This document shows, piece after piece, positions 3,517-57,975 of a stretch of 64,000 nt of DNA; within the stretch, counting starts at the first letter, position 1; each line of letters opens with the position of its first letter. This stretch comes from Bacillota bacterium (GTDB lineage: Bacteria; Bacillota; JAAYKD01): contig OY762825.2 of assembly GCA_963666425.2 (NCBI GenBank), positions 800,001 to 864,000 on the forward strand, read 5' to 3'. Under the pieces are notes generated by a model. The model searched no databases. It was not told where the DNA came from and saw only the letters and a list, made by a program, of their open reading frames with translations. The translations under genes and the position numbers were made by a program.

Positions 3517-4632
3517 CTAGCCATTGAACGTTGTCTCGGGCAGCTCCCCTGCCAAATCCCGTAAAAAAGGATCGGTCAAAAAGTAGGTAAATTGATCAAA
3601 ACTGCCAATCTTTCGGCTTTGGAATCGGCTCGGAAGCTGACTTGAATTCGCCCTGTGCATTTCCTGCAGCAGCTGTTCAAATACATACCAACGTAAATGA
3701 GAAAGCAGAGAAGTTTCAATCCAATAAAAATACCGCGGTCCGGGACAGCCTCGCTCTAATTTTTTCAGGCGGAGGTAAGCTGCCAGTCCATCGGAAACAT
3801 CATGCCAAAGGTCGGCAAATACCAGATTGTAGCTTTCTTTTGCCGCGTATTTTTCCAGATAGTCAAACGCGTCCATGGCAACGATACTCACTTTTTCCGG
3901 GTGAGAAAACTGGGGCAGAATATATTCTTGAAACAACCGAATCACTTTTTCATCTTTTTCCACTACAGTGATATGGGTTACTTCGGCTTTTTCGGAAGTC
4001 ATATAAGGAAAATAGCCAAGTCCCAAGCCAAAGGTGACGATCTTACCTTTTGCGGCATCAATCACCGGCTGCATGGTTTCAATTTCATTGGGTGTGATGG
4101 TCATCCATTCCTGCCCGGCTTGCAGGACGGCCGGAAAGGAAAACGGTTCACTAAAAAAACCCAATTGCGGTATTTCCCGAAAATTGTGTTCCAGCTTGAT
4201 ATCGTTGTAAATAAACGCCTGATAGGGCTGCAAGCACTCGGTCTTCAATTTCCAATCAGACAGCATTCGCGTCGGGATGCTGATCTTGCGGTAATAAGGA
4301 TTTGCCTGGTAGCAGCTCACGTCCAGCTTCCTGATGGAAGGGAGGAAATACTCTCTGGCAATCTGCAGATCCCGCTGATTTTGCTCGGTATCCAAGCCAC
4401 AAGCAGTGGTCAATAAACCAAAGAAAGCATATTCTTCTGATAATCCGGCTTCTTGTTGCAGCGGTTCGATTAATTCTTTGGTGATCAAAGCCGCATGATG
4501 AGTCAAAAAATAACTGTACATACCAATGACTTCAAAATTTCTCGCCTTCATTTCGGCGATTTGCCTGACCTTCTCCCGGTCGGCTTGATTCAGATTGATT
4601 TCCATATCTTTCTCCATTGCTTTCATAGACAT
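3517..4632 (-). CDS. Hypothetical SAM-dependent methyltransferase / spermidine-synthase-like protein
   Basis: FGLGLGY, VVEKD, DAF and FADLWHD Rossmann-methyltransferase-like motifs. Confidence 0.6.
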   Translation of the reverse strand: MSMKAMEKDMEINLNQADREKVRQIAEMKARNFEVIGMYSYFLTHHAALITKELIEPLQQEAGLSEEYAFFGLLTTACGLDTEQNQRDLQIAREYFLPSIRKLDVSCYQANPYYRKISIPTRMLSDWKLKTECLQPYQAFIYNDIKLEHNFREIPQLGFFSEPFSFPAVLQAGQEWMTITPNEIETMQPVIDAAKGKIVTFGLGLGYFPYMTSEKAEVTHITVVEKDEKVIRLFQEYILPQFSHPEKVSIVAMDAFDYLEKYAAKESYNLVFADLWHDVSDGLAAYLRLKKLERGCPGPRYFYWIETSLLSHLRWYVFEQLLQEMHRANSSQLPSRFQSRKIGSFDQFTYFLTDPFLRDLAGELPETTFNG

Positions 4633-45171: not shown

Positions 45172-48100
45172 TCAGTTTACCTCGTCAGAAGCAACCGGTA
45201 TCGTGAAATATACGGTTGTTCCGGCATTTGGCCTTCCGCTTATCCATGTCCGGCCGTTATGTTTTGCAATAATATTCCTGACTGCAGCTAAGCCAATGCC
45301 TTGACCTTCATATTCGTCAGTATTGTGAAGTCTTTCGAACGCACTAAAAAGCTTGCCTGCATATTCCATATCGATGCCTATACCATTATCTTTAATGCTG
45401 ATAACATACTCATTATTTTCCCTGCTACACCCAACAATAATTTTTGAAATTTCTCGATTAGTCGAAAACTTTAGCGCATTGGAAATGAGATTTGTTATGA
45501 CGTGATGAATCAAGGTTTTATCGGCAAAAATTTTGGGGATTCCGGTCTGAAAATCAAGAACTGAATTCACATACTTTTGTTTTTCATAAACGTCAATGAT
45601 CATTTTCTTAAGATCAATTGTTTCTTTTCTCAGCTCGATTCCAGTGAGCCTTTCATACTCCAACAGCTCTGAAATCATCTTGTTCATACCAGCACATAAA
45701 TCGATTATTTTCGCTGAATTCGTTGCAATATCAATATTTTCTTGGATCTGTTTGGAATACTTATTTATTTCCTGTAGCGGCATTTTAAGGTCATGGGTCA
45801 CAGTTAGTGAGAAGTTTTGAAGGGTTTTTATTGATTGATGTAACTCTTCGGTTCGTTCATTAACACGGGTTTCAAGAGAGGTGTTCAGTTTTATTATCTC
45901 TTGCTCAGCATTGATGCGTTCTGTGATATCTCTGCCAAACATCGTAATCTCTATCAGCTGAGAATCGATATAGACAGGATGGAATGAATAGGAAAAAACC
46001 CTATTATCCCGCGATATGCGGATGTCAACATGAAGTTCTCCTTCGGTTTTCACACGATCAAGCAACTCTATAAAGATGGAGAAAGTTTCTTCTGGAAAAG
46101 CTTCTTCGAGACTTAAGCCGGATTTAATTTCCATGCCATAAAATCCGCTGATAAAATCATTAACTGATTTATTCCAAAGAATTATTTTATAATCAGGATC
46201 AACTGACCATATAAAATCATCTGTACTGTTGATGATGTTTATAAGCTCCATTGTCCCTTTTTTAATTTCATTCTCAGCTTTAATCATTTCGGTAACATCA
46301 CGATTTGTTTCAAGAACTGTGTTAAGCCCCAGTTCATTGATTATGATCTGCTGTCGTGACTCTATGCAAAGCAATCGACCATCCTTTGTAGTATGGTCGA
46401 CAAGACCCTTCCATGAGCCATGTTCCAATAAAAGCGAACTGAGTTCCTTAAAATCAATCGGGTATCGAGAATTGAGTAATTTGTAAGGTAAACAACCAAC
46501 AGCAGCATCATCTTTATAGCCATAAATGTTTTCAGCGCCTTGATTCCAATAGATAATCGGACCATCCATGTAATATGCAAATATCGCTTCATTAGATAGA
46601 TCCAAAAGCTTTGCCTGCCGGTTTAGTATTTTATTCTGCTGTTGAAGCTGAACAATATGGTCTTCAATAGCATGTTGGGTTTTCATAAGCTCCGTGATAT
46701 CGTGATAAGATACAACTAATGCCATAAGTTTATTTTGGTCATCGAAGATAGGTATAGCTGTAACTTCAACGATTCTGCTCCATTTGCCGCGTTCAATAAT
46801 GATTCGTTCATTGCGGACTGACTCGCCCCTGAAAGCACGCCGTGTCGGGAAATCATCAAACGACTTAACATTTCGTTCGAGGTCAAGACAGCGATATCCC
46901 TCAAAAATACTGTGTACTGATGTTTGGCTGGTTATATGATCCGGAAACATTGACCGGGCTTGAACGTTTACAGATGTTATATTGCCGTCACAATCATATA
47001 CCAAAAGAGCATCATGCATATTTTCAATGATAGCATACTGAAGCTTGTTTTGATATCGAATTTCTGCTTCCATTTTATTGCGTTGCGTGATATCTCGACA
47101 TAATTCAAGCACGATTTTATTACCATCTTCATCGATGTACATTTGCTTTGCTGTTTCAATACAGAGCAGTCTGCCATCTTTTGTTGTATGTATGATTTCC
47201 CCGATCCATTTTTCGTTATTTTCCAACAGGTACAGTGTTTCCTCCATGCCGATGGGACGTGTTGTCTGAAGAAGCACATCGTTTAATTGACCGATTGCTT
47301 CTTCAGCCAGATACCCGTACATGAGCTCGGCGCCTTTGTTCCAGTAAAAAATAGTACCATTCAAGTCCCAAGCAAAAATCGCTTCATGGGAAAGGTTCAG
47401 AAGCCTTGACTGCCTGTTTAAAATTTTATATTGTTGATTAAGCAACCCTAAATGCTCTTTGATGGTTAAGCCATCAGCGATTGTTTGATGAGATAAAGAA
47501 CTGTTCTGTTCAAATAGCAGAAGCTCGGTCTGCTTTATTTCTCTGAAAATCAGGTCGTATGGTTCTCGAATACCCGTTTGGACGATAGCTTTGTAAATAA
47601 AGAAAAAAGAGAATATTTTAAAATAATGCCCAAACAAATTTGTTAATCCGTAATTATTGATATATGTTGTAAAACAAGCCTCTGATGCTATCGTAAGAAG
47701 GATGGATAAAAGTAAGAATTTATAGACTTTACTTTCGAATGAATCTTTATTTTTATGTAGTACAAAAATTGTAGCTAAAAGAATTGTAATAATGATATAT
47801 TCACTGATAATTTTGAACTGAGTTTGTCCTACTCCGTCAATAAACGCGATGGGAAAATTATGCCATACAAAAACAGAAAGAAGAATTAACGTAGTGAAAA
47901 TAGTATAAACGGTAAATAAAAGATAAATATTCACTTTTTTAGTCGACTTTATAAGTATGAAGGAAAATAAAAGTATAATACTTTCAAAATATCTGGCTGC
48001 AATCCATAATTGGTTCGCGTGATAACTAGAATCCAGAAAAATTGTCATACCCTCATATGCTGCAGTATGGAATAAATCCAGGCAACCAATAAATAAATAC

Positions 48101-48303
48101 GCGAATCCTATCATTAATAAATAGTTATTTTTTAAAACGCTTGCCGAATTCCACGTTATAATAAAAACAGTAATGGCAATACATATGCTGAAAACTTCTG
48201 CAAACATATGGAACAAAAGATAATTGTAAAGACTACTATAATATAATAGAATTAATATGGCAACAGCAATAATAATACTACTACTTTTCTTAATATAACT
48301 CAT
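45172..48303 (-). CDS. Sensor histidine kinase with MASE3-like membrane domain and multiple PAS domains
   Basis: LLFHMFAE, LDLFH, WIAARY TM region; PAS repeats (YWNKGAE, YWNQGAE); THDLKMP, NLISNALKF, DNGIG, GIGLA. Confidence 0.9.
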   Translation of the reverse strand: MSYIKKSSSIIIAVAILILLYYSSLYNYLLFHMFAEVFSICIAITVFIITWNSASVLKNNYLLMIGFAYLFIGCLDLFHTAAYEGMTIFLDSSYHANQLWIAARYFESIILLFSFILIKSTKKVNIYLLFTVYTIFTTLILLSVFVWHNFPIAFIDGVGQTQFKIISEYIIITILLATIFVLHKNKDSFESKVYKFLLLSILLTIASEACFTTYINNYGLTNLFGHYFKIFSFFFIYKAIVQTGIREPYDLIFREIKQTELLLFEQNSSLSHQTIADGLTIKEHLGLLNQQYKILNRQSRLLNLSHEAIFAWDLNGTIFYWNKGAELMYGYLAEEAIGQLNDVLLQTTRPIGMEETLYLLENNEKWIGEIIHTTKDGRLLCIETAKQMYIDEDGNKIVLELCRDITQRNKMEAEIRYQNKLQYAIIENMHDALLVYDCDGNITSVNVQARSMFPDHITSQTSVHSIFEGYRCLDLERNVKSFDDFPTRRAFRGESVRNERIIIERGKWSRIVEVTAIPIFDDQNKLMALVVSYHDITELMKTQHAIEDHIVQLQQQNKILNRQAKLLDLSNEAIFAYYMDGPIIYWNQGAENIYGYKDDAAVGCLPYKLLNSRYPIDFKELSSLLLEHGSWKGLVDHTTKDGRLLCIESRQQIIINELGLNTVLETNRDVTEMIKAENEIKKGTMELINIINSTDDFIWSVDPDYKIILWNKSVNDFISGFYGMEIKSGLSLEEAFPEETFSIFIELLDRVKTEGELHVDIRISRDNRVFSYSFHPVYIDSQLIEITMFGRDITERINAEQEIIKLNTSLETRVNERTEELHQSIKTLQNFSLTVTHDLKMPLQEINKYSKQIQENIDIATNSAKIIDLCAGMNKMISELLEYERLTGIELRKETIDLKKMIIDVYEKQKYVNSVLDFQTGIPKIFADKTLIHHVITNLISNALKFSTNREISKIIVGCSRENNEYVISIKDNGIGIDMEYAGKLFSAFERLHNTDEYEGQGIGLAAVRNIIAKHNGRTWISGRPNAGTTVYFTIPVASDEVN

Positions 48304-48440
48304 ATCTACCTTCTCCTGTTCATCTGATAAACCGAATATTCTGGCCACTCCCATGCTTGTTCGCACAGAAGTTTTTGAGTAATCCGGAGTAAAATTCCTA
48401 CGGGGGTGCGGATGTTTTCTTGCACCTTTTTGCCCGGAAT

Positions 48441-48648
48441 CTACTCCACAATATCGCTGAAGTCGGTATTCAGTACTCGACATATTCTTTCGACCGTTGT
48501 GAGCGTAATGGGCTCATCCCGACACATCTTTGTGAGTGTCTGTGGACACTTCTCTACAGCCTTGCGAAGATCGGACTTAGTCATCTTTTCTATCAATCAG
48601 GAGCTTCTATAGTCTGTTATATGAAATAGCCTTATGGTTACTTCCCAT
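48441..48648 (-). pseudogene. Cro/C1-type HTH regulator pseudogene
   Basis: ISYNRL*KLLIDRK, then frameshifted MTKSDLRKAV...TLTTVERICRVLNTDFSDIVE*. Confidence 0.7.
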
Positions 48649-49001: not shown

Positions 49002-49898
49002 TCAGGCGCTCTTTTTCAATAGGACTGGCTGGTAAACTTTTGCAGGAGCTTGGTAGTCCAAGGCGGAGTGCAAGCGCTCGTAATTGTAGGTATAGATAAA
49101 AGCAGCTATTTGTTGCCTGGCTTCTTTTATGTTGAGATACTCTTTCAGATAAACCTCTTCATACTTCAGCGTGCGGAACCAACGTTCTATTAAAATATTG
49201 TCTGCCCAGCGGCCTTTACCATCCATGCTGATCTGAATCTGGTTGGCTTTTAGAAAGTCGGTGTAATCATGACTGGTAAATTGGCTGCCTTGATCCGAGT
49301 TCAATACCTTCGGTTTCCCCATGGCCAGGGCTTTCTCTACTGCACGTAAAACCATTGGTGTTGCTAAGGTATCATCTAGTTCCCAGCCCACAATACAACG
49401 ACTGTGCCAGTCAATGATTGCAGTCAAGTAAATAAAGCCATGCTTCAAGCGTATATAGGTGATATCAATAGACCAAGCTTGATTGATTCGATTTATCTGC
49501 GCGTTTTTCAGTAAATAGGGGTAAATTTCGTGACCCTTTACGGGTTTTGAGAGATCCGGCTTGGGGTAAATCACTCGAATTCCTATTTCTTCCATGTAGC
49601 GTCTGGTTTTGAGCCGGCCAACCAGTAAGTTACGATCTTTTAATTGTTTGGATAGCTGACGGGAACCCCATGTTGGATTCTTGGTATGGATCTCATCGAT
49701 GATCCGTTTCGCTTGCAGTTCTATTTCGCTTGGTCTGGCAGATATCCAATAGATTGAGGTCCGATTGACCTCAAGCAACTGGGCCATTGTCTGGATCGTC
49801 AGGTTCCCTTTTCCAGACTCAGCTTTTTGGGCGCGGAGTAAATTGACTTTCCCATTCAGGTCCAAGCAGCTGTTCAGATTTTTTTTTGAGCCAGTCAA
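49002..49898 (-). CDS. IS3 transposase OrfB (DDE integrase core)
   Basis: WSIDITY, NSDQGSQF, DNILIERWFRTLKYE. Confidence 0.93.
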   Translation of the reverse strand: MTGSKKNLNSCLDLNGKVNLLRAQKAESGKGNLTIQTMAQLLEVNRTSIYWISARPSEIELQAKRIIDEIHTKNPTWGSRQLSKQLKDRNLLVGRLKTRRYMEEIGIRVIYPKPDLSKPVKGHEIYPYLLKNAQINRINQAWSIDITYIRLKHGFIYLTAIIDWHSRCIVGWELDDTLATPMVLRAVEKALAMGKPKVLNSDQGSQFTSHDYTDFLKANQIQISMDGKGRWADNILIERWFRTLKYEEVYLKEYLNIKEARQQIAAFIYTYNYERLHSALDYQAPAKVYQPVLLKKSA

Positions 49899-50157
49899 CC
49901 TGTGTGGTTAGCTGACCGATCTTCTTGTATAGCTCTTCTGTCTCCTGATGCTTGCTTTGTAATTCGCATCTAAGTTCTTCGGTCCGTTTATCTTCAAATG
50001 CAGCCGTTGCGTTTTTTAGAAACTCTGCTTTCCAATTGCGTATTTGGTTCGGGGCGAGCTCGTTTTCAGTGGCGATGATATTCAGTTCTTTTTCACCACG
50101 GAGCACTTCCAAGATGATCTTTGTCTTATACTCGGCACTAAAGGTTCTTCTCTTCAT
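49819..50157 (-). CDS. IS3 transposase OrfA
   Basis: RRTFSAEYKTKIILE...QIRNWK...LYKKIGQL...WLKKK. Confidence 0.92.
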   Translation of the reverse strand: MKRRTFSAEYKTKIILEVLRGEKELNIIATENELAPNQIRNWKAEFLKNATAAFEDKRTEELRCELQSKHQETEELYKKIGQLTTQVDWLKKKSEQLLGPEWESQFTPRPKS

Positions 50158-50567
50158 CTCTTCGACCTGCTTTCTTTCTTTGTATTCATTATAGCAGGTT
50201 CATCATCTTCATGCTCTCTTTTTGTCGAGTTTTCCTAGACCATTATACTTGATGATACGTTGAGCTTTGTGTTTAGGAATGGTAGTGAGGTAATTAGCTG
50301 AATACAGTTTGGTTTACCCGAATCGGATTTTGTGCATTTACAAAATTCGTATCAATATCATAAAACATATCATTATCATTATTTGAATCAAATTGTCTTT
50401 TTACGAGGTTGGCCAAATTGCGATTTGTGCTATATATCACAAATCCTTATTAATTCAATTGTGAAAGTAGAATAAAAACGTTAAAAAGGAAAACAAATCC
50501 TTGAATATTCGGAAATTTCACATGTGTATAATATGAATTTAATTGCACAATGTAGAAAAAATTAATA

Positions 50568-50596
50568 TTGACTATTTAGATTAAATTATGTATAAT
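50568..50596 (+). promoter_or_regulatory. Sigma-A promoter of the RiPP cluster
   Basis: TTGACT-17-TATAAT with extended TG. Confidence 0.8.
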
Positions 50597-50851
50597 TTTA
50601 CCGAATTTATGGGAAATATTACAATATGAGCGGACTGGAACTTTTCTATCAAGCATTTGCTTGGTATTGCAAATGCCTTTCTGGTGCTTAACATTTTAAT
50701 CTCTCTGTGTTTGGCATGAGCAAGGCGGTCGAAGTTTCGTTTATCCGCTCGGAAGGTTAATTCAATAATTCCCTAAGTTTTTTTGTTAGTCTGAATTTTT
50801 TTCGCGGATTAAAACAAGGGAAAATATGCATAGTTATGACTAAAAAGAGGG

Positions 50852-52558
50852 TTGATTAAGTTGAACAGGATATTACAAAACAGTATATTCATGTTAAATT
50901 ACATAAAGAAGCACTGCAGAAAATTCATGATTATAGCTTTTTCCCTGGCACTGGTTTCAAGTATTGTTTCTATTGTATCGATCATTTTCATAAGAGTAGC
51001 ATTAAATGATGTGATTTCGAATAAATCAATGCGGACGCTAATTATTATCCTTATTGCGAATTTTTCCGTTTCACTCCTCGCGGCACACCTCACATCGGTT
51101 AGTAATAACATCGTTATTCCCATAGCAACTCAGAAATTCCAAGCCAATATGCATAGAGAATTGTATGAGAAAGCAGCAGAAATTGATTTGATTAAGTATG
51201 ATGACCCTATATTCTATAATAAATATATAATGGCACTAAATAATTCTGATTCAAGAGCGTTGTCTGTGTTAAGCACATATACCTCATTATTGACCGCTGT
51301 TATTAATAGTATAGGTATGATTGCATTTATATTATCAATTAATCAAGTTATTATCTTCCTTATTGTTGTTTTGAACGTGTTAATTTCGACGTATTGCAGT
51401 TCAATCTCATCTACTATTTCACATAAATTTAATCTATCTCTAGTTGCCATTCAAAGAAAAACTGCTTATGTGAAAAGAGTTTTTTATTTAAATAATTATG
51501 CATGCGATATACGAACTACTAAAATTACAGAGGTTCTTTTTCGCATTTTGAACGACACTATGCGGTCAACACGTGAATTGACTGAAAAATGGGGATGGAA
51601 AAACTACAGAATCACATTATTTCAACATGTGATACAAGCAATAACTACTTTACTAACAATGCTTTATCTTTCAAAATTATATATCTCTGGCTTTATGCCT
51701 GCTGGCGATTTTGCCGCCGTTTTGAGCAGTGTTAATTTACTTGTCTCTTCACTCAAGAATCTCTTTGCGTCGATTCCTCAGCTTTATGAACATAGCTTAT
51801 ATATCGAGAATTTCAAAGAGTTTTTCCTATACAAGCCCACATATGATTCGATAGAATGCAAAGAAATAGAAGCGATCAAAGTAATAAAGATTGATAACTG
51901 CTCATTTGAGTATGAAGAAGGTAAGTGTATTTTAGAGAATATAAATTTGGAAGTAAACATTAGAGAAAAATTAGGGATAATTGGTCCAAATGGAGTAGGT
52001 AAAACGACATTCATTAAGTTAATTACGGGTCTTTATAAGCCGATAAGCGGGAATATTTTTTTGAATGACATTAATTATTCAAAACTGTCTAAAAATGTTT
52101 TTCTGCAAAATTTCTCGGTGTTTTTTCAAAATTTTGAAATCTATGCTACTAGTATTGCAGAGAATGTTCTAATGAAACCCATTGAGAACTTTGAAACGGA
52201 ATCACTTCTTGTTGAAGATGCATTAAAAAATGTAGGCCTATGGGAAAAAATTAATAAATTTGAAAACGGTATTTTAACCCCCATGCTAAAAGAGTTTGAT
52301 GAAGCAGCCGGTGCTTTTTCAACAGGGGAGTATCAGAGGATTGCACTTGCTCGGATTTTTGTAAAAAAATGCGCATTCGTTATTCTAGATGAACCCTTCA
52401 GCCATATAGATAAGAATTCGGTGGAACTAATTTTGAACAACTTAATTAAGAGAAATCCGGAATGCGGTATTGTAATGGTGACTCATGACAAAGCAAACTT
52501 GATCTCATTTGATAAAGTGTACGACCTTGAAACTAAGACATTAAATTCTTTAATATAA
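50852..52558 (+). CDS. ABC exporter (fused permease/ATPase) of the RiPP cluster
   Basis: N-terminal TM domain; GPNGVGKT, FSTGEYQR, ILDEP, VTHD; no C39 peptidase domain. Confidence 0.9.
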   Translation: MIKLNRILQNSIFMLNYIKKHCRKFMIIAFSLALVSSIVSIVSIIFIRVALNDVISNKSMRTLIIILIANFSVSLLAAHLTSVSNNIVIPIATQKFQANMHRELYEKAAEIDLIKYDDPIFYNKYIMALNNSDSRALSVLSTYTSLLTAVINSIGMIAFILSINQVIIFLIVVLNVLISTYCSSISSTISHKFNLSLVAIQRKTAYVKRVFYLNNYACDIRTTKITEVLFRILNDTMRSTRELTEKWGWKNYRITLFQHVIQAITTLLTMLYLSKLYISGFMPAGDFAAVLSSVNLLVSSLKNLFASIPQLYEHSLYIENFKEFFLYKPTYDSIECKEIEAIKVIKIDNCSFEYEEGKCILENINLEVNIREKLGIIGPNGVGKTTFIKLITGLYKPISGNIFLNDINYSKLSKNVFLQNFSVFFQNFEIYATSIAENVLMKPIENFETESLLVEDALKNVGLWEKINKFENGILTPMLKEFDEAAGAFSTGEYQRIALARIFVKKCAFVILDEPFSHIDKNSVELILNNLIKRNPECGIVMVTHDKANLISFDKVYDLETKTLNSLI

Positions 52559-52772
52559 CAGGGTAATTAAGATTTCCCGTTGTACAATTACTTATTAGTG
52601 AGGAGCCTTTAGATTTTCCGGTGTAGCGCACCTATAGAATTTTTGAACCTAACTATTCCTCAATCACAACCGATGTTCATAGCTGTTCGACGACTTGCAG
52701 AGAATTTACTCTTCTAGGAAATTGTTTCTTGAAACAGTATTTTCATATAAAAAATCCAAAAGGAGGAGAAAA

Positions 52773-54068
52773 ATGAAGTTCAGTAATTATCTCACCATGT
52801 TTGAAACCTCGCAGTGCATGATTCTATATAGCACTTTAAGGAGGTGCGCAATTAAGATTTATGATATAGATATTAAAGAGGTTATTCGAAGTTTAAAAAC
52901 TGGAGAAACGATTGACGAATCTTACTTGACAAAGTATTCAGACTTCTTTGAAGATCTAAAAGAGAATAATTTCATAATGGAAGATATTTGCGACGAATCC
53001 GAACTGGTCAATTACTTATATCAAACCTCAGTATCAAAAGATGCATCATTGGAATTGATATTGATTCCTACTCGACAATGCAATTTTCGATGCCCTTATT
53101 GTTATGAAGAGCATGAAGCTAAGGTAATGAGTGAAGAAGTTTATTCTAATATATTGAGTTTCATTAAGAAGTATCTTGAATATAGATCAATAAAAAAAAT
53201 AAGGATTTCTTGGTTTGGAGGGGAGCCGCTGCTTGAACACAAAAAAATCATTGATTTTATGAAAACTTTGAAATCTTTAGTCGAGGACAATTGTTGCATT
53301 GAAGGCAGCATGACAACTAATGGCTATTTGCTCAACGAGGTTCTATTCAATGATCTTGTTTCATGTAATGTTAAAAGTTATCAAATAACGGTTGATGGTT
53401 TAAAGGAGTTCCATAATAAGACAAGATATCTATTAGGCGGACATGGGACTTGGGATAAAATCATGAAAAATCTTTTAAAAGCAAAAAAGACACCTCATGA
53501 TTTTAGAATATTGATTAGGACTAACTATACAGAGGAGTCATTATCGAAATATTTGGAATGGTTAAACATTCTAAAGGAGAGTTTTGGTGATGATAAAAGG
53601 TTTGCATTTTATTGTGAGACGGTAAAAAACCTTGGGGGAAACAACACAGAGTATGCTTATAATAATAAGAAACCTAATCCAATTGGTTATGTACTATCAG
53701 ACATGAAAAACTTAAATTTAAATTCATCGGGTTATGAATATCTGACTAACAACTTTGGTTATATTTGTTATGCTAGTCGGCAAAATTCTTTTGTAATTGA
53801 TTATGATGGAGCTCTAAAGAAATGTACAATTTTACTAGATAATGACAAAAATATTGTTGGAAATATAAGCAATCAGATGGATAATATTGATTTCAAAAAA
53901 ATGGCTTGGTGGACGAGTTATAATCATAAAGAAGCATGTCGATCGTGTTATATATATCCTATTTGTTATGGAAAGAAATGCCCGGCTTCCTATTTTTCCG
54001 AAGATTCATGTAGGTTGTTTAAAGAATATCAGCTTGGGGTCATCAGAAGTGTTGTACAAGAAATGTAA
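52773..54068 (+). CDS. Radical SAM/SPASM peptide maturase
   Basis: CNFRCPYC, WFGGEPLL, TTNG, ICYA...KKC...CRSCYIYPICYGKKCP...C; ~90-aa RRE-like N-terminal extension; AGGAGG RBS. Confidence 0.9.
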   Translation: MKFSNYLTMFETSQCMILYSTLRRCAIKIYDIDIKEVIRSLKTGETIDESYLTKYSDFFEDLKENNFIMEDICDESELVNYLYQTSVSKDASLELILIPTRQCNFRCPYCYEEHEAKVMSEEVYSNILSFIKKYLEYRSIKKIRISWFGGEPLLEHKKIIDFMKTLKSLVEDNCCIEGSMTTNGYLLNEVLFNDLVSCNVKSYQITVDGLKEFHNKTRYLLGGHGTWDKIMKNLLKAKKTPHDFRILIRTNYTEESLSKYLEWLNILKESFGDDKRFAFYCETVKNLGGNNTEYAYNNKKPNPIGYVLSDMKNLNLNSSGYEYLTNNFGYICYASRQNSFVIDYDGALKKCTILLDNDKNIVGNISNQMDNIDFKKMAWWTSYNHKEACRSCYIYPICYGKKCPASYFSEDSCRLFKEYQLGVIRSVVQEM

Positions 54069-54100
54069 GTGATTCTGAGGGTTTTTTGTATGACATACTG

Positions 54101-54428
54101 AGCTTCACGAGGCATACATGCAATACCTTAATTAACGAAAGGAGTTTTTTAATTTGAAATCATATGAAATAGTGAATTTGAATAAAAAATATGATATAGC
54201 TCCCCTGTTTTTAGATGTATGTTCCGATGTTTGCCCCAACATGGGGGGGTGTACCGATGTTTGTCCAGATATCGGTTGTGCAACAAACACAGGGTGTAAT
54301 GTGGATACTAGTTGCAACCCGAATGCAGGTTGCGGTGGTGGTTCTGATATGGGTTGTGGTGCTAATAAAATAGTAAGATAAACAGTCTCAAGAATATAGA
54401 TTAGTTGCATGTATGCCTCTGTGGAGTT
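54101..54428. repeat. Inverted repeat pair enclosing the precursor gene
   Basis: GAGGCATACATGCAA (54109-54123) and TTGCATGTATGCCTC (54405-54419), extendable by 8 bp with G-U pairs. Confidence 0.9.
54154..54381 (+). CDS. Cys-rich RiPP precursor peptide (9 Cys)
   Basis: GAAAGGAG RBS plus TTG start; Cys-free leader and a Cys/Asp/Asn/Gly-rich core; next to the rSAM gene. Confidence 0.85.
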   Translation: MKSYEIVNLNKKYDIAPLFLDVCSDVCPNMGGCTDVCPDIGCATNTGCNVDTSCNPNAGCGGGSDMGCGANKIVR

Positions 54429-54559
54429 AATTAATTAACGAGGGGTTAAGAGTTATCCTATTGGGAAACTCTCAAAATTCGGAGATTTATATAGACTGAA
54501 AGGTATCTGGTACAGCCCTAATGATTTGCTGAACATTATTATTAATGGGGGGTAATAGT

Positions 54560-55789
54560 ATGAAAAAAGTAATGATAGTAATCATATTAATAGTTGCGGC
54601 ACTAACATTCGATATATATAAACCGTATCTATATCAAAAGCTGAATTACAATAAACTAATAACACTTGATAAGCCATCGGCGCACTCCGATATTGATTAT
54701 CTATGGTATCATTTAGAAGATGAGTATCCATATTTAAACACTGCTTTTGAAAACAAAGGTAAAGTGGATTATCACAGTTACTTAAATGACGGAATAACAG
54801 ATGCTTCCGATTTTTCGTTCAATACATATACGCAATACTTACTTAAAATCCCTAATGATCTCAGATATAGAGGTGATTTTACTCTTGTCTTTCCAAAACT
54901 GTACTATTATTTTCATGAGAACTGGACAAGAGCAAAATACGCTTCAAAACAAATACAGAATAACTACAATGAGTTGATTAAGAATGTTTCTTGTGACACA
55001 TATAATATTTTAAAACAATCAGAGGTGAGTCAATTAGATTATGGTGTACCATCTGACAGTATGAAAAGTTTCACTACTGAGGAGATTAGTGCAGATATTG
55101 CTTACTTGAAAATTGAGAATGGATCAAGTACCCGAATAGATAAAGATCGAGAAGCGTTAACGGACTTCTTTAAGTCCATTCATGGAAAAGATTACCTGAT
55201 AATAGATCTTCCCGAATCAAACATTTATTCGTCAGAATATTTTATAGAGAATATTATTTCACCTAACCTTCCTGTCGATTACAGTTTCAGCAGCTATGCT
55301 TTATACACAGAGGATGGTTATAAAAAAAGGGAGGCTGAAGATGCATTTGTGGGTATGCAAACGGGTTCGGTCGATGAAATAGCCGAATTGACAAATCAGA
55401 TTAATGTAGATGATTTAGCGCGTCTAAAATACTATACGAAATCCAATCATTTTATAGAAGCTATAAACGATAAACCTTTGTTTAATGGAGAGATTATTCT
55501 ATTGACAGATGCCTATATTTATGGTGTAGGTGAATATCTGACAATGATCGCAGAAAAAAGTGGCTTTTCCACCTTGGTTGGTAAACCAACACATGGTAAA
55601 GGTGTTATTGGTGATATGGATATCAGTGTACTTTCTCTTCCGAAAAGCGGTATAGTTTTTACTTATCAATTAAAATACGACTTATGGGAAGATGGATCAA
55701 CTTTAGTAACCCCCATTTCACCGGATTTTCTTGCATTGGATCAAGAATCACCACTTGAAGCAAGTATGAGATATATAAAAGAGAAGTAG
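54560..55789 (+). CDS. Membrane-anchored S41-peptidase-like protein with a degenerate active site
   Basis: DIDYLW..LEDEYPY, IAYLKI, LIIDL, FNGEIILLTD, TLVGKPTHG, LPKSG, PD; YGVGE at the usual YSA/SE position. Confidence 0.75.
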   Translation: MKKVMIVIILIVAALTFDIYKPYLYQKLNYNKLITLDKPSAHSDIDYLWYHLEDEYPYLNTAFENKGKVDYHSYLNDGITDASDFSFNTYTQYLLKIPNDLRYRGDFTLVFPKLYYYFHENWTRAKYASKQIQNNYNELIKNVSCDTYNILKQSEVSQLDYGVPSDSMKSFTTEEISADIAYLKIENGSSTRIDKDREALTDFFKSIHGKDYLIIDLPESNIYSSEYFIENIISPNLPVDYSFSSYALYTEDGYKKREAEDAFVGMQTGSVDEIAELTNQINVDDLARLKYYTKSNHFIEAINDKPLFNGEIILLTDAYIYGVGEYLTMIAEKSGFSTLVGKPTHGKGVIGDMDISVLSLPKSGIVFTYQLKYDLWEDGSTLVTPISPDFLALDQESPLEASMRYIKEK

Positions 55790-55815
55790 ACGTTTACAGT
55801 TAATCTGAATCCATT

Positions 55816-56262
55816 TTGCAAAGAATGTTAGCAACATTCGCCAAAGGCGTATCAAAATTTGTTCCTATACTTGGCGGAGTTATCTCTGGCGGTCTCACGC
55901 TGGCAATGTTTAAGATGATGGCACACATGCTCAAGAAGCATCTCTCAACAATGGCTCATATGTCGCCGGAAGAGTTTGCCGAGTACGAAGCCGCTATTGT
56001 CTTTGATGCGAAAGACTCAGACACAGATGGCGAGATTGTTGAAGTAGTGATTGATGAGGTTGCGACAAACTATTGGGTTTGTACTTGTGGTGCGGAGAAC
56101 AAAGGTAAATTCTGCCCTGAGTGTGGCAAAGCAAAGCCCATCGGGATACCGCAATACAAATGTAACAAGTACGATAGGGAACCGGATGATAAGACTCACC
56201 CACCAAAGTTCTGTCCAGAATGTGGCGACCCATTTGATGACGGCGATATAGTATTGGTATAA
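55816..56262 (+). pseudogene. 5'-truncated gene with a C-terminal double zinc ribbon
   Basis: No clear RBS; KFVPILGGVISGG segment; WVCTCG..NKGKFCPECG...PPKFCPECG with one CxxC degenerate. Confidence 0.55.
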
Positions 56263-56553
56263 CATAATTAGCAAACATTATAAGCAAACCGGTAGCTCTC
56301 CAATTACTATTAGTTGCCCACTATGTTTATAAACCATAACGAACGTAATACAAACATTCTGAAATAAAAACTCCTCTTCACAAGAAGGGAAATCAGTGAT
56401 GATGAGCTTTTATTTCCAAGCCTTATACCTGTATAACTGTGTCATTCTTAAAGGTGAACCATACATTATCTTTGACTGTTCGTATTTTTGTGTAAAATAT
56501 AAATAGTAATCAAAACAAGAGCAAAGTTTTTTAAATATAGAGGAGCCAGAATT

Positions 56554-57285
56554 TTGAACAATCTTTTTTCACATAGTGCCATAAAAGCTGAGGGCAAAGA
56601 ACACTTGAAGCAACATTTCTCATCGGCAGTTCTGTTTCTATTACTGACCTTAACGGTATCGCTTGTAGCCAGTCGAGTTTTGGGTGTCTTGTTTTCCACC
56701 AGAGGACCGGCTATTGATTGGCAGTCGATGACAACACATCAAATCGTAATCAAAACTAGAGAGCTGATATTCACCACTCATAATTTGCTTCGTATGTTGG
56801 TAGAAAACCTGGTTACAGCGGCAGTAGCGTTAGCTAAGGTCTGCTTTTACCTCAATGTTGCTCGGTCAACGGACAAAATCACCCTTATTAATCCCTTAAT
56901 TTACGGGTTCAAACACTCGTTCAAAGCCTATCTTCTTGATTTTTTAATGGGTATTGTTGTCGGTATTGGCGTTGTCTTGTTGATTATTCCCGGCATTATT
57001 TGGGGAATTCAATACATGTTTGCTTTTCTTGTATTGGCAGATCATCCGGAATATTCGGTCATGCAAGCCTTTCAGCGCAGTGCTGAACTAACCAAGGGTA
57101 AAAAAATGCATCTTTTTAAGTTCATTCTGAGCTTTTTCCCGTGGTTACTATTAGTTGCCGTTACTTTCGGGTTGGCCATTCTTTATGTAGGACCATACTA
57201 TAGCACTTCCGTAGCAGTATATTATAATCGATTAGTCTATGACGCGGAGGGTGTCTTGCCCGAACCCCCTGGTGAAATTCTTTAA
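56554..57285 (+). CDS. DUF975-family membrane protein
   Basis: LLIIPGII...S..LTKGKK..LF..ILSF..W...TFGLA.LYV.PY; GGAG RBS. Confidence 0.85.
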   Translation: MNNLFSHSAIKAEGKEHLKQHFSSAVLFLLLTLTVSLVASRVLGVLFSTRGPAIDWQSMTTHQIVIKTRELIFTTHNLLRMLVENLVTAAVALAKVCFYLNVARSTDKITLINPLIYGFKHSFKAYLLDFLMGIVVGIGVVLLIIPGIIWGIQYMFAFLVLADHPEYSVMQAFQRSAELTKGKKMHLFKFILSFFPWLLLVAVTFGLAILYVGPYYSTSVAVYYNRLVYDAEGVLPEPPGEIL

Positions 57286-57298
57286 CAGAATAATAAAA

Positions 57299-57975
57299 AG
57301 ACTAACTATTAAAAGTCAATCCCCAAAATGGAAAAAAACTGTGGATAGGCCGCCGCCCTATGACAAGCAGCAGCCAAATGCTGCGGAAAGATCAGCGAGG
57401 GCGACGGAGGCAATAAATTACCAGACCCAGCCCCCTTGAGCTTTCCAGCCTAGCATTTGGCTGCTTCTGCTTGTCAAGGGTTCGCTGCGCCGGCTGAGGT
57501 GTACAAGTTGTCGGCGAAGGCTCAAAAGGCAATTATGCCGCTCTTCGGTAACCTTCACCGGATTTCTGCATTGCGTAGATTAAGCGTACCAATTTCTTGG
57601 CTGCATGAGAAATAGCGACATTGTAGTGCTTCCCTTCGGCTCGTTTCTTTGCCAGATATGCGGCGAAGATTGGATCCCAGATACAGACATACTTTGCGGC
57701 ATTAAACAGAGCAAAACGGAGATATCGGGAACCGCGTTTCTCCATATGCGAATGGCTGTTATCCATCTTGCCGGATTGGTATGTGGATGGAGACAGGCCT
57801 GCAAATGCAAGAATCTTGTCCGGAGAATCGAACTTGGCAAAGTCTCCAATCTCGGCAAGAATCATTGCTCCCATACGAGTACCCATGCCTGGAATGGTAG
57901 TAATTGGAGAATGGAGTGCCTGCATAAGCTCGTCAATCTGAGCTTCAATCTCGTCAATTTCAGAGTCCAGTTTGT
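57299..57975 (-). mobile_element. IS110-family element: transposase C-terminal fragment plus 3' non-coding end
   Basis: TIPGMG...ILAEIGD...AFAGLSPSTYQSG...KRGSRYLR...KKLVRLIY; end sequence TTGACTTTTAATAGTTAGTCT. Confidence 0.85.

Follow-up and report, generated by a model that had tools for sequence, protein, structure and literature searches.

Two described peptide maturases of the radical S-adenosylmethionine (rSAM)/SPASM type tie Cys to Asp or Asn (collectively Asx) in opposite orientations. In an NxxC motif, NxxcB joins Cys to Asn three residues upstream, at the beta-carbon of this Asn, and tolerates Asp at that position (PMC9389541), whereas PapB uses an Asp or Glu located downstream of the Cys (PMC9413430). 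An adjacent shp/rgg quorum-sensing operon is what defines the streptococcal NxxC system (PMC11851443). Here we analyze a 64,000-nucleotide (nt) stretch of contig OY762825.2 of a Bacillota bacterium (the whole stretch is referred to as the window), in which positions 50852..55789 hold genes for an ATP-binding cassette (ABC) exporter, an rSAM/SPASM enzyme, a 75-residue Cys-rich precursor and an S41-fold protein. This AT-rich operon had been recognized in a preliminary description made from the letters alone, and we confirm it: all four genes lie on the plus strand, Pfam and NCBIfam agree with the assignments, and GC content is low. We interpret it, with a probability of about 60%, as a horizontally acquired cluster for an rSAM-modified, Cys-cross-linked, ranthipeptide-like member of the ribosomally synthesized peptides with post-translational modifications (RiPPs) from a clade without a curated family. 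The class proposed earlier stands: a RiPP cluster of the radical SAM/SPASM kind, with an exporter and a precursor rich in Cys and Asx. The natural-product class is known, but no catalogued family covers the cluster, and no curated family claims its enzyme or its peptide.

The precursor of 75 amino acids (aa) is encoded at 54154..54381 on the plus strand and has a TTG start 9 nt behind AAAGGAG. A leader of roughly residues 1–20 (MKSYEIVNL...) precedes a core with 12 Asp/Asn and nine Cys, at positions 23/27/33/37/42/48/54/60/68. These Cys positions, the motifs CSD, CPN, CTD, CPD, CATN, CNVD and CNPN and the 6-residue spacing from C42 to C60 were all given in the preliminary description and read identically in our hands. 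The core can be written as DvC DvC NmggC DvC DigC NtgC DtsC NagC DmgC, with an Asx two to four residues upstream at each Cys. Five of the nine Cys stand in [DN]-x-x-C (C42 DIGC, C48 NTGC, C54 DTSC, C60 NAGC, C68 DMGC), which is the NxxC motif and overturns the earlier statement that the spacing matches no known one. No Pfam or NCBIfam model matched the precursor. Its first 20 core residues (CSDVCPNMGG / CTDVCPDIG; window 54220-54275) are a 30-nt tandem duplication whose two 26-nt copies are 77% alike; judged from such repeats, the core grew by unit duplication.

A homologue search with the single precursor sequence yielded one match, 93% identical and with all nine Cys retained, and a profile search was needed to reach other subtypes. 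Using a profile of family peptides, we recovered 14 proteins among 94 candidates. Four precursor subtypes are distinguished: that of the window, L004, L005 (with L006 and L018), and L019. In all four, a Cys/Asx-rich open reading frame (ORF) lies directly 3′ of the maturase gene, and the N-termini of the encoded peptides are similar (MKSYEIVNL in the window, MSYEILSL and MSFSVLAK in L004 and L005/L006, MPEYEVLNV in L019). Maturases of the other subtypes are 34–41% identical to the window's and come from gut and rumen metagenome-assembled genomes (MAGs) and metagenomes; the nearest ones in species genomes, at 38–41% identity, belong to an Oscillospiraceae MAG (L004) and to Clostridia MAGs (L005, L006). 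The cluster had been put forward as a candidate new one, and for the precursor this holds in the sense that no curated family model matches it; with three further subtypes sharing a similar leader, it is no orphan.

Gene order in both L004 and L005 is maturase, precursor, S41 peptidase, ABC exporter. L019 combines a precursor with 11 Cys and a maturase 34% identical to the window's with an ABC exporter, a CAAX-type protease and a partial second rSAM gene, and no S41 gene was found within the metagenome fragment available. The accessory protease, as far as gene content tells, is variable among the family subtypes. In L019 the partial second radical SAM gene and the Rce1-like CAAX protease, at L019:10-930 and 3859-4485, stand in place of the S41 gene. 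The metagenome scan by enzyme alignment used generic rSAM patterns, and most of its 80 loci were distant (28–37% identity); the only family members gained from it were L018, identical in sequence to L005, and L019. At one of the more distant loci (L083:3340-4376), a maturase with 30% identity is preceded by seven tandem genes for Cys-rich precursors of 35–66 aa, all beginning with MKYI or MRYI, and this is a different, multi-precursor family.

We counted Asx at each offset from Cys in eight family peptides (the window peptide, P0001, P0006, P0010, P0005, P0007, P0012 and P0014; 83 Cys). Left out were P0002–P0004, whose core equals that of P0005, the truncated or frameshifted P0008, P0009 and P0013, and P0011, an internal deletion form. 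The eight peptides represent three subtypes and are hence not independent. Asx stands at –3 of 53 of the 83 Cys, and the runner-up offset, +2, accounts for 29/83. The –3 enrichment beats core shuffles in each of the eight peptides (p ≤ 0.012), whereas enrichment at +2/+3 is significant only in the window peptide and its 93% homologue. In the L019 precursor, 6 of 11 Cys have Asx at –3. By comparison, this was so for only 19 of 115 Cys in 21 hand-picked Cys-rich candidate precursors located beside more distant maturases. Loop lengths after Cys vary across the family while the –3 spacing is constant, and Cys plus Asx at –3 are the invariant core features. The family unit is [DN]-x-x-C, i.e. the NxxC motif in the orientation of NxxcA/NxxcB.

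The maturase (431 aa) is encoded on the plus strand at 52773..54068, with a likely ATG start at 52773 behind AAGGAGG within an ORF listed at 52695-54068. Its CX3CX2C motif for the SAM cluster (C103/C107/C110, CNFRCPYC) is invariant in 25 relatives, and the Pfam Radical_SAM model scores 60 bits. The SPASM domain is marked by a seven-Cys signature, CX9-15GX4C ... CX2CX5CX3C ... C. In the window maturase the seven C-terminal Cys (C332, C351, C389, C392, C398, C403, C413), invariant or nearly so in the same 25 relatives, follow the spacing C332-X13-G346-X4-C351, C389-X2-C392-X5-C398-X4-C403, C413, with one X4 where the motif has X3. An AlphaFold model based on the 25-sequence alignment reached a mean predicted local distance difference test (pLDDT) of 88.9 and a predicted template modelling score (pTM) of 0.88. 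At the N-terminus of the model, strands 7-11, 16-20 and 25-29 are followed by helices 32-42, 49-54 and 56-64 (pLDDT 81–92), and residues 7-64 have, as modelled, the shape of a PqqD-like RiPP recognition element (RRE). The best Foldseek match was CteB (5wgg/5why; template modelling score, TM, 0.70–0.73; E ~1e-18), followed by anSME (TM 0.61), ChlB and TigE (0.69), with SuiB at ~0.5. Since the chemistry of these fold neighbours is varied, the fold fixes the type of the enzyme and not its chemistry.

None of the curated NCBIfam maturase families was reached at its cut-off by the window maturase. In full-length alignments it scored 183.8 bits against TIGR04463 (cut-off 525), 163.7 against Clo7bot (TIGR04334; 600), 159.6 against the CefB 'Cys-every-fifth' family (NF038107; 600), 139.6 against FlmE/OhkG (500), 137.7 against geopeptide (400), 111.3 against PapB (NF047865; 340) and 68.9 against the SCIFF maturase (TIGR03974; 425). 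The same below-cut-off pattern was repeated for the maturases L004, L005, L019, P0015, P0017 and P0018. Among 1.84 billion representative proteins, 19,788 were related to it at E ≤ 0.001 and 1,658 at E ≤ 1e-30; identity falls from 82% in the nearest (431 aa vs 431 aa) to 55% (a fragment) and then to 45% and lower, with roughly 30 representatives at 38–45%. Among the best 100 of 150 listed relatives, 99 were without a family match at E ≤ 1e-85, the exception being a fused 688-aa protein that is still under every cut-off. By these scores, the maturase occupies a populated but uncurated part of its enzyme space.

Six 'catalytic site proximity' positions of ranthisynthases have been defined on CteB (PMC10288494, section 7). 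A profile alignment (positions 53-413) places Y111, F148, T181, T206, T352 and I353 of the window maturase at these positions, where CteB has F112, F152, T186, S210, H363 and Q364; two residues are identical, two similar and two different. When the complex of enzyme and precursor was predicted, it scored 0.57 against 0.02 for the best control, with a partner pLDDT of 34–38 and a contact agreement of at least 22%. In calibration, 58 of 80 solved complexes passed the mark of this test, as did 2 of 110 mismatches, and scores of 0.60 or lower among those belonged to 7 of the 80 solved complexes and to both mismatches. As the CteB-CteA complex has already been solved, the pass may reflect likeness to it. 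The prediction lends weak support to binding of the leader or precursor by the maturase.

The exporter (50852..52558, plus strand; 568 aa, with an alternative TTG start at 50861) is predicted to be a half-transporter with one transmembrane domain and one nucleotide-binding domain, the ABC_tran model scoring 90.8 bits. Its residues 21-550 align to 151-664 of the 673 positions of the peptidase-containing ABC model NF045998, and residues 19-545 to 151-667 of the 708 positions of TIGR01193. Both alignments begin at model position 151, so the exporter is devoid of an N-terminal C39 peptidase domain. It is 27–28% identical to the ABC proteins of L004 and L005.

The last gene of the cluster (54560..55789, plus strand; ORF listed from 54545, the likelier start being the ATG at 54560 behind GGGGGG) encodes a protein with an N-terminal membrane anchor. 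Earlier it was simply called S41-like. In family terms this is right: Peptidase_S41 (PF03572) scores 31.2 bits over residues 292-386 (cut-off 24), and the nearest Atlas clusters are 100% PF03572. The nucleophilic Ser, however, is absent. The conserved S-x-x-E/D motif reads G-V-G-E, and G327 falls into the Ser column of three alignments: a HMMER alignment with 4ghn (TLSAAE vs IYGVGE), and MAFFT alignments with the S41 proteins of L004 and L005 (GSAVD and ASAGD, where Ser is kept) and with the genome's own CtpB homologue (SASASE). S408 of L004 is presumably the equivalent of Ser965 of tricorn protease. The Lys of the GKG motif (K352) is retained. At the S41 His the alignments disagree: DGIT aligns with DGHT of L004 and L005 in one alignment and not in the CtpB alignment. 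The Gly at the catalytic Ser position implies that the protein is probably a pseudo-protease and probably not the leader peptidase. A 73% identical, full-length orthologue (P0166) has the same FGVGE, so that the change looks less like recent damage than like a non-catalytic protein being maintained. Structure prediction from an alignment of only five sequences was unusable (pLDDT 31.9). A weak match was found in the Protein Data Bank, retinol-binding protein 7jti (E 1.5). A paper about how the eye protein IRBP arose from bacteria refers to S41 peptidase (PMC10120077), which hints that the S41 fold may also be put to non-catalytic use.

Several soil-metagenome runs, from different studies, contain near-identical copies of the cluster, and four runs (X3, X4, X5, X10) were compared along its length. 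X3 and X4, from different studies, carry near-identical complete clusters whose peptide is the P0001 form, differing from the window's by D25N, V26A, the loss of one Gly at 31/32, G41S and T44P. X5 has an intermediate form and X10 only T44P. All variants are confined to core residues 25-44 and consist of four substitutions, all non-synonymous, and one in-frame deletion; no Cys and no leader residue is altered. Gly loss in the commoner variant turns NmggC into canonical NmgC, which brings the canonical units to 6/9, and D25N, an interchange of Asp and Asn, fits an NxxcB-like acceptor. On the X3 contig the precursor gene has 4 substitutions in 228 nt vs 5 in the 1,296 nt of the maturase gene. 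The pattern of variation, as read from these contigs, is as expected for a RiPP core.

To the left, homology to the soil contigs ends at ~50530-50564, and to the right at ~56143; the conserved block lies between these limits. GC content is 0.315–0.343 across 50–55 kb, compared with 0.34–0.535 (mostly 38–53%) elsewhere in the window. The block is flanked on the left by an IS3-type insertion sequence (IS) transposase (orfA + orfB, with HTH_Tnp_1 and rve domains; 49002..50157, minus strand) and on the right by a 130-aa IS110-family transposase fragment with Transposase_20 only (57533..57925, minus strand). At E ≤ 1e-60 the maturase was found in none of the nine other genomes of its small class, and at E ≤ 1e-50 in two of 400 other genomes sampled from the phylum, where identity is 32–34%. 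At the DNA level, three related genomes matched only in the IS3 element, a piece of IS110 and one lipoprotein gene, and no empty insertion site could be defined from this comparison. Taken together, the cluster looks horizontally acquired.

We propose the following pathway. The leader, MKSYEIVNL..., would dock on the N-terminal RRE domain of the maturase. The radical SAM cluster would generate a 5′-deoxyadenosyl radical that abstracts hydrogen from an Asp or Asn side chain, and a Cys thiolate held on the auxiliary SPASM cluster would capture the carbon radical, giving one thioether per Cys and a mass loss of 2 Da for each. The acceptor would most likely be the Asx three, sometimes two, residues upstream of the Cys, as in NxxcB, and the result a string of up to nine small rings. 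The ABC transporter may then export the product; the S41-fold protein without its nucleophile might bind rather than cut the peptide, perhaps in immunity or handling, and the leader would be removed by another protease. These steps carry different degrees of confidence. That the locus makes an rSAM-modified RiPP from this precursor is very probable. Thioethers are likely to be formed by the Cys, and Asx as their acceptors we favour slightly. The upstream (–3/–2) orientation is a tentative choice, which falls short of even odds, although we rate it as likelier than the downstream one.

The observations that weigh against this interpretation are given together with its rivals. One concerns the enzyme itself: the Pfam SPASM model does not match the maturase at E ≤ 0.01. 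NxxcB is likewise a SPASM radical SAM enzyme, and the likeness to its system lies in the precursor motif. In the precursor, the four window Cys outside [DN]-x-x-C have no Asx at –3; three have it at –2 and one at –4. The preliminary description had proposed the orientation of PapB, in which each Cys would be tied to a downstream Asx (Cys-x-Asx for C23/27/33/37, Cys-x-x-Asx for C42/48/54), with C60 and C68 using D65 and N71 or staying free. The pattern behind it is real in the window peptide, where Asx stands at +2/+3 of 8/9 Cys (p ~0.001, 20,000 core shuffles). It stands likewise at –2/–3 of 8/9 Cys (p ~0.001), and downstream Asx is therefore as enriched as upstream Asx in this peptide alone; the two readings are statistically equal there because of the periodicity of the core, in which an Asx at –3 of one Cys is at the same time at +2/+3 of another. 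PapB itself accepts CXnD with n = 0–6 and failed on the transposed D...C order (PMC9413430), and its model, at 111.3 bits, is the highest-scoring one among families known to be biochemically characterized; those that score higher are not known to be more than bioinformatic definitions. What speaks for the upstream orientation is the family. The two other subtypes contribute six peptides, in which +2/+3 is not significant (p 0.06–0.59) and –3 is significant throughout; the relatives conserve –3 instead, with a fixed spacing on that side of Cys and variable loops on the other. Furthermore, no window Cys has Asp at +4, the native spacing of PapA, the score with the PapB model amounts to a third of the 340-bit cut-off, and Asn freely replaces Asp, whereas the work on PapB stresses the carboxylate (PMC9413430). 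We consider the downstream orientation unlikely.

The carbon to which sulfur is attached could also differ. A sactipeptide would have the same Cys linked to alpha-carbons, in the way QmpB makes a link from Cys to the alpha-carbon of Asn (PMC11851443). Two sactisynthases, GggB and QmpB, have sequences similar to those of ranthisynthases (PMC11851443, PMC10288494), and alpha and beta/gamma attachment are indistinguishable by sequence and fold. The closest hidden Markov model (HMM) families and the CteB structure lie on the ranthipeptide side, and the Asp/Asn-specific pattern suggests side-chain chemistry; neither point is decisive, and we hold a sactipeptide to be improbable. Sactionine links dissociate under collision-induced dissociation and ranthionine links do not (PMC13692751). 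Chemistry other than thioether formation (epimerization, C–C or C–O links, oxidation of Cys), with the Cys serving for disulfides or metal binding, is the least credible of the rivals. It could draw on the fact that RRE-rSAM-SPASM enzymes of the same fold do unrelated things, such as TigE, a cyclopropylglycine synthase (TM 0.69), anSME (0.61) and SuiB (~0.5), and on the fifth and sixth proximity positions, which are the two that differ from CteB. Against this, Cys and the Asx at –3 are the invariant core features of the family, and the best HMM matches are all maturases of Cys-rich peptides. The remaining rival sees in the cluster a remnant that is decaying on a mobile island and yields no product. 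This would suit the cluster's position in a low-GC island between IS elements, the S41 gene without a nucleophile, a list of sequencing runs in which no RNA run appears, and run X5. There the ABC and rSAM genes are uncovered, and in short contigs the promoter/leader region is joined to the 3′ end of the rSAM gene (50828 to 53840) or to the region upstream of the precursor (50750 to 54079); the missing coverage counts only because contigs bridge the gap, and one of the two joints is weak, with a 28-letter side. A form with precursor and S41-like gene and without exporter and maturase thus seems to exist, so that the cluster can decay. In the window, however, all four ORFs are intact and have good ribosome-binding sites, the rSAM enzyme (82%) and the S41-like protein (73%, with the same Gly) have full-length orthologues, and X3 and X4 hold near-identical complete clusters from two studies. 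We regard a remnant as quite improbable.

Several features of the locus outside the four genes may bear on its expression. A sigma-70-like promoter match, TTGACT-17-TATAAT, lies at 50568..50596 on the plus strand, ~255 nt 5′ of the ABC gene. It is a consensus match only, with 11 of 12 hexamer positions, and is at the top of 40 sites found (shuffled sequences: mean 30.1). The ~255 nt from this site to the ABC start (50597-50851) may act as a regulatory leader; they include a hairpin (50653-50676) with a weak T-run behind it. Five Rfam matches on 50100-56600 were all to eukaryotic families, far under the gathering scores, and were judged to be chance. A terminator scan returned four sites against 2.9 expected, with no convincing one between the cluster genes. 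The precursor gene and its ribosome-binding site are enclosed by a perfect 15-nt inverted repeat (pair I3), with the left arm GAGGCATACATGCAA at 54109..54123 and the right arm TTGCATGTATGCCTC at 54405..54419, at a distance of 281 nt; behind both arms comes a similar TTAATTAACGA-purine-rich stretch. By a rough estimate, ~0.005 such pairs are expected by chance in the region. The repeat could form a long-range mRNA stem for stabilizing or processing the precursor message, or could be the mark of a cassette.

Downstream of the S41-like gene, a 148-aa ORF (55816-56262) with two zinc-ribbon-like CxxC pairs begins after 27 nt. It lies within the block conserved in soil contigs (to ~56143), and a 1-nt deletion at 56014 in two runs makes its frame vary by strain; it gives the impression of a larger gene's tail. 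Beyond the IS3 element, a 1,103-aa sensor kinase (45172-48483, minus strand) has a MASE3 membrane domain, several PAS domains and HATPase_c, with no evident link to the cluster. No Rgg-type regulator was found among the neighbouring ORFs scanned, the sole nearby helix-turn-helix ORF being a 51-aa fragment at 48441-48596, also beyond IS3.

Among described systems, the precursor is closest to NxxcA, with which it shares the Asx-x-x-Cys unit at 5/9 Cys in the window, 6/9 in the common variant and 53/83 in the family. NxxcA reportedly carries one such link, whereas the present precursors have 5–9 tandem units. No counterpart of the shp/rgg operon that defines the streptococcal system was found among the ORFs scanned next to the window cluster, which has an exporter and an S41-fold gene. 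From CteB, the SCIFF (thermocellin) maturase, the window enzyme differs by an identity of 17–18%, even though CteB is its best structural match and has the same three-domain architecture; CteB makes one Cys-Thr gamma link, and the window precursor has no match to the six-Cys-in-45 peptide of the SCIFF system (0 NCBIfam matches at E ≤ 10). TIGR04463, Clo7bot and CefB give the top full-length HMM scores and likewise pair a Cys-rich peptide with an rSAM/SPASM enzyme. The scores are about a third or less of the respective cut-offs, and none of the eight family precursors matched an NCBIfam precursor model at E ≤ 10. We take these three families to be bioinformatic definitions without a characterized product.

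The S41-fold protein shares Pfam membership with S41 peptidases of the NSR, tricorn-core and CtpB types, and its N-terminal anchor with NSR. NSR, itself an S41 protein, has a thioether peptide as its target and its catalytic Ser236 in a TASSAEM motif (PMC4828448). The position of this Ser is Gly327 in the window protein and Gly in its orthologue, while L004 and L005 keep Ser, and the family offers a natural experiment, with an accessory S41 protein that has catalytic competence in some of its clusters and lacks it in others. In the literature covered, which did not extend to supplements and subscription papers, we found neither a precursor with multiple [DN]xxC units nor a sactipeptide or ranthipeptide cluster that includes an S41 gene.

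A broader and rather speculative proposal, which we would not expect to hold in full, is a poly-[DN]xxC family in which one maturase ties every Cys to the Asx at –3 and so forms up to nine consecutive four-residue beta-thioether rings. Its S41-fold partner would be an active protease in some members and, here, a non-catalytic, membrane-anchored peptide binder serving as self-immunity factor or export chaperone. To our knowledge, such a bead-string topology of consecutive four-residue rings has not been described for any RiPP. The nearest many-ring counterpart is the PapA/PapB system of Paenibacillus polymyxa, whose product, freyrasin, has six Cys-X3-Asp beta-thioethers. Many tandem Cys/Asp units and an RRE-rSAM-SPASM enzyme are common to both. 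The window core differs in that 0/9 Cys have Asp/Asn at +4, in that Asn is used as freely as Asp, and in that the conserved spacing lies on the other side of Cys. Should the rings be made in the proposed way, peptide engineers would be provided with a second, oppositely oriented thioether stapling enzyme that accepts Asn and Asp, and the family would combine NxxcB's acceptor-upstream geometry with the many-ring architecture of freyrasin, two features so far seen apart.

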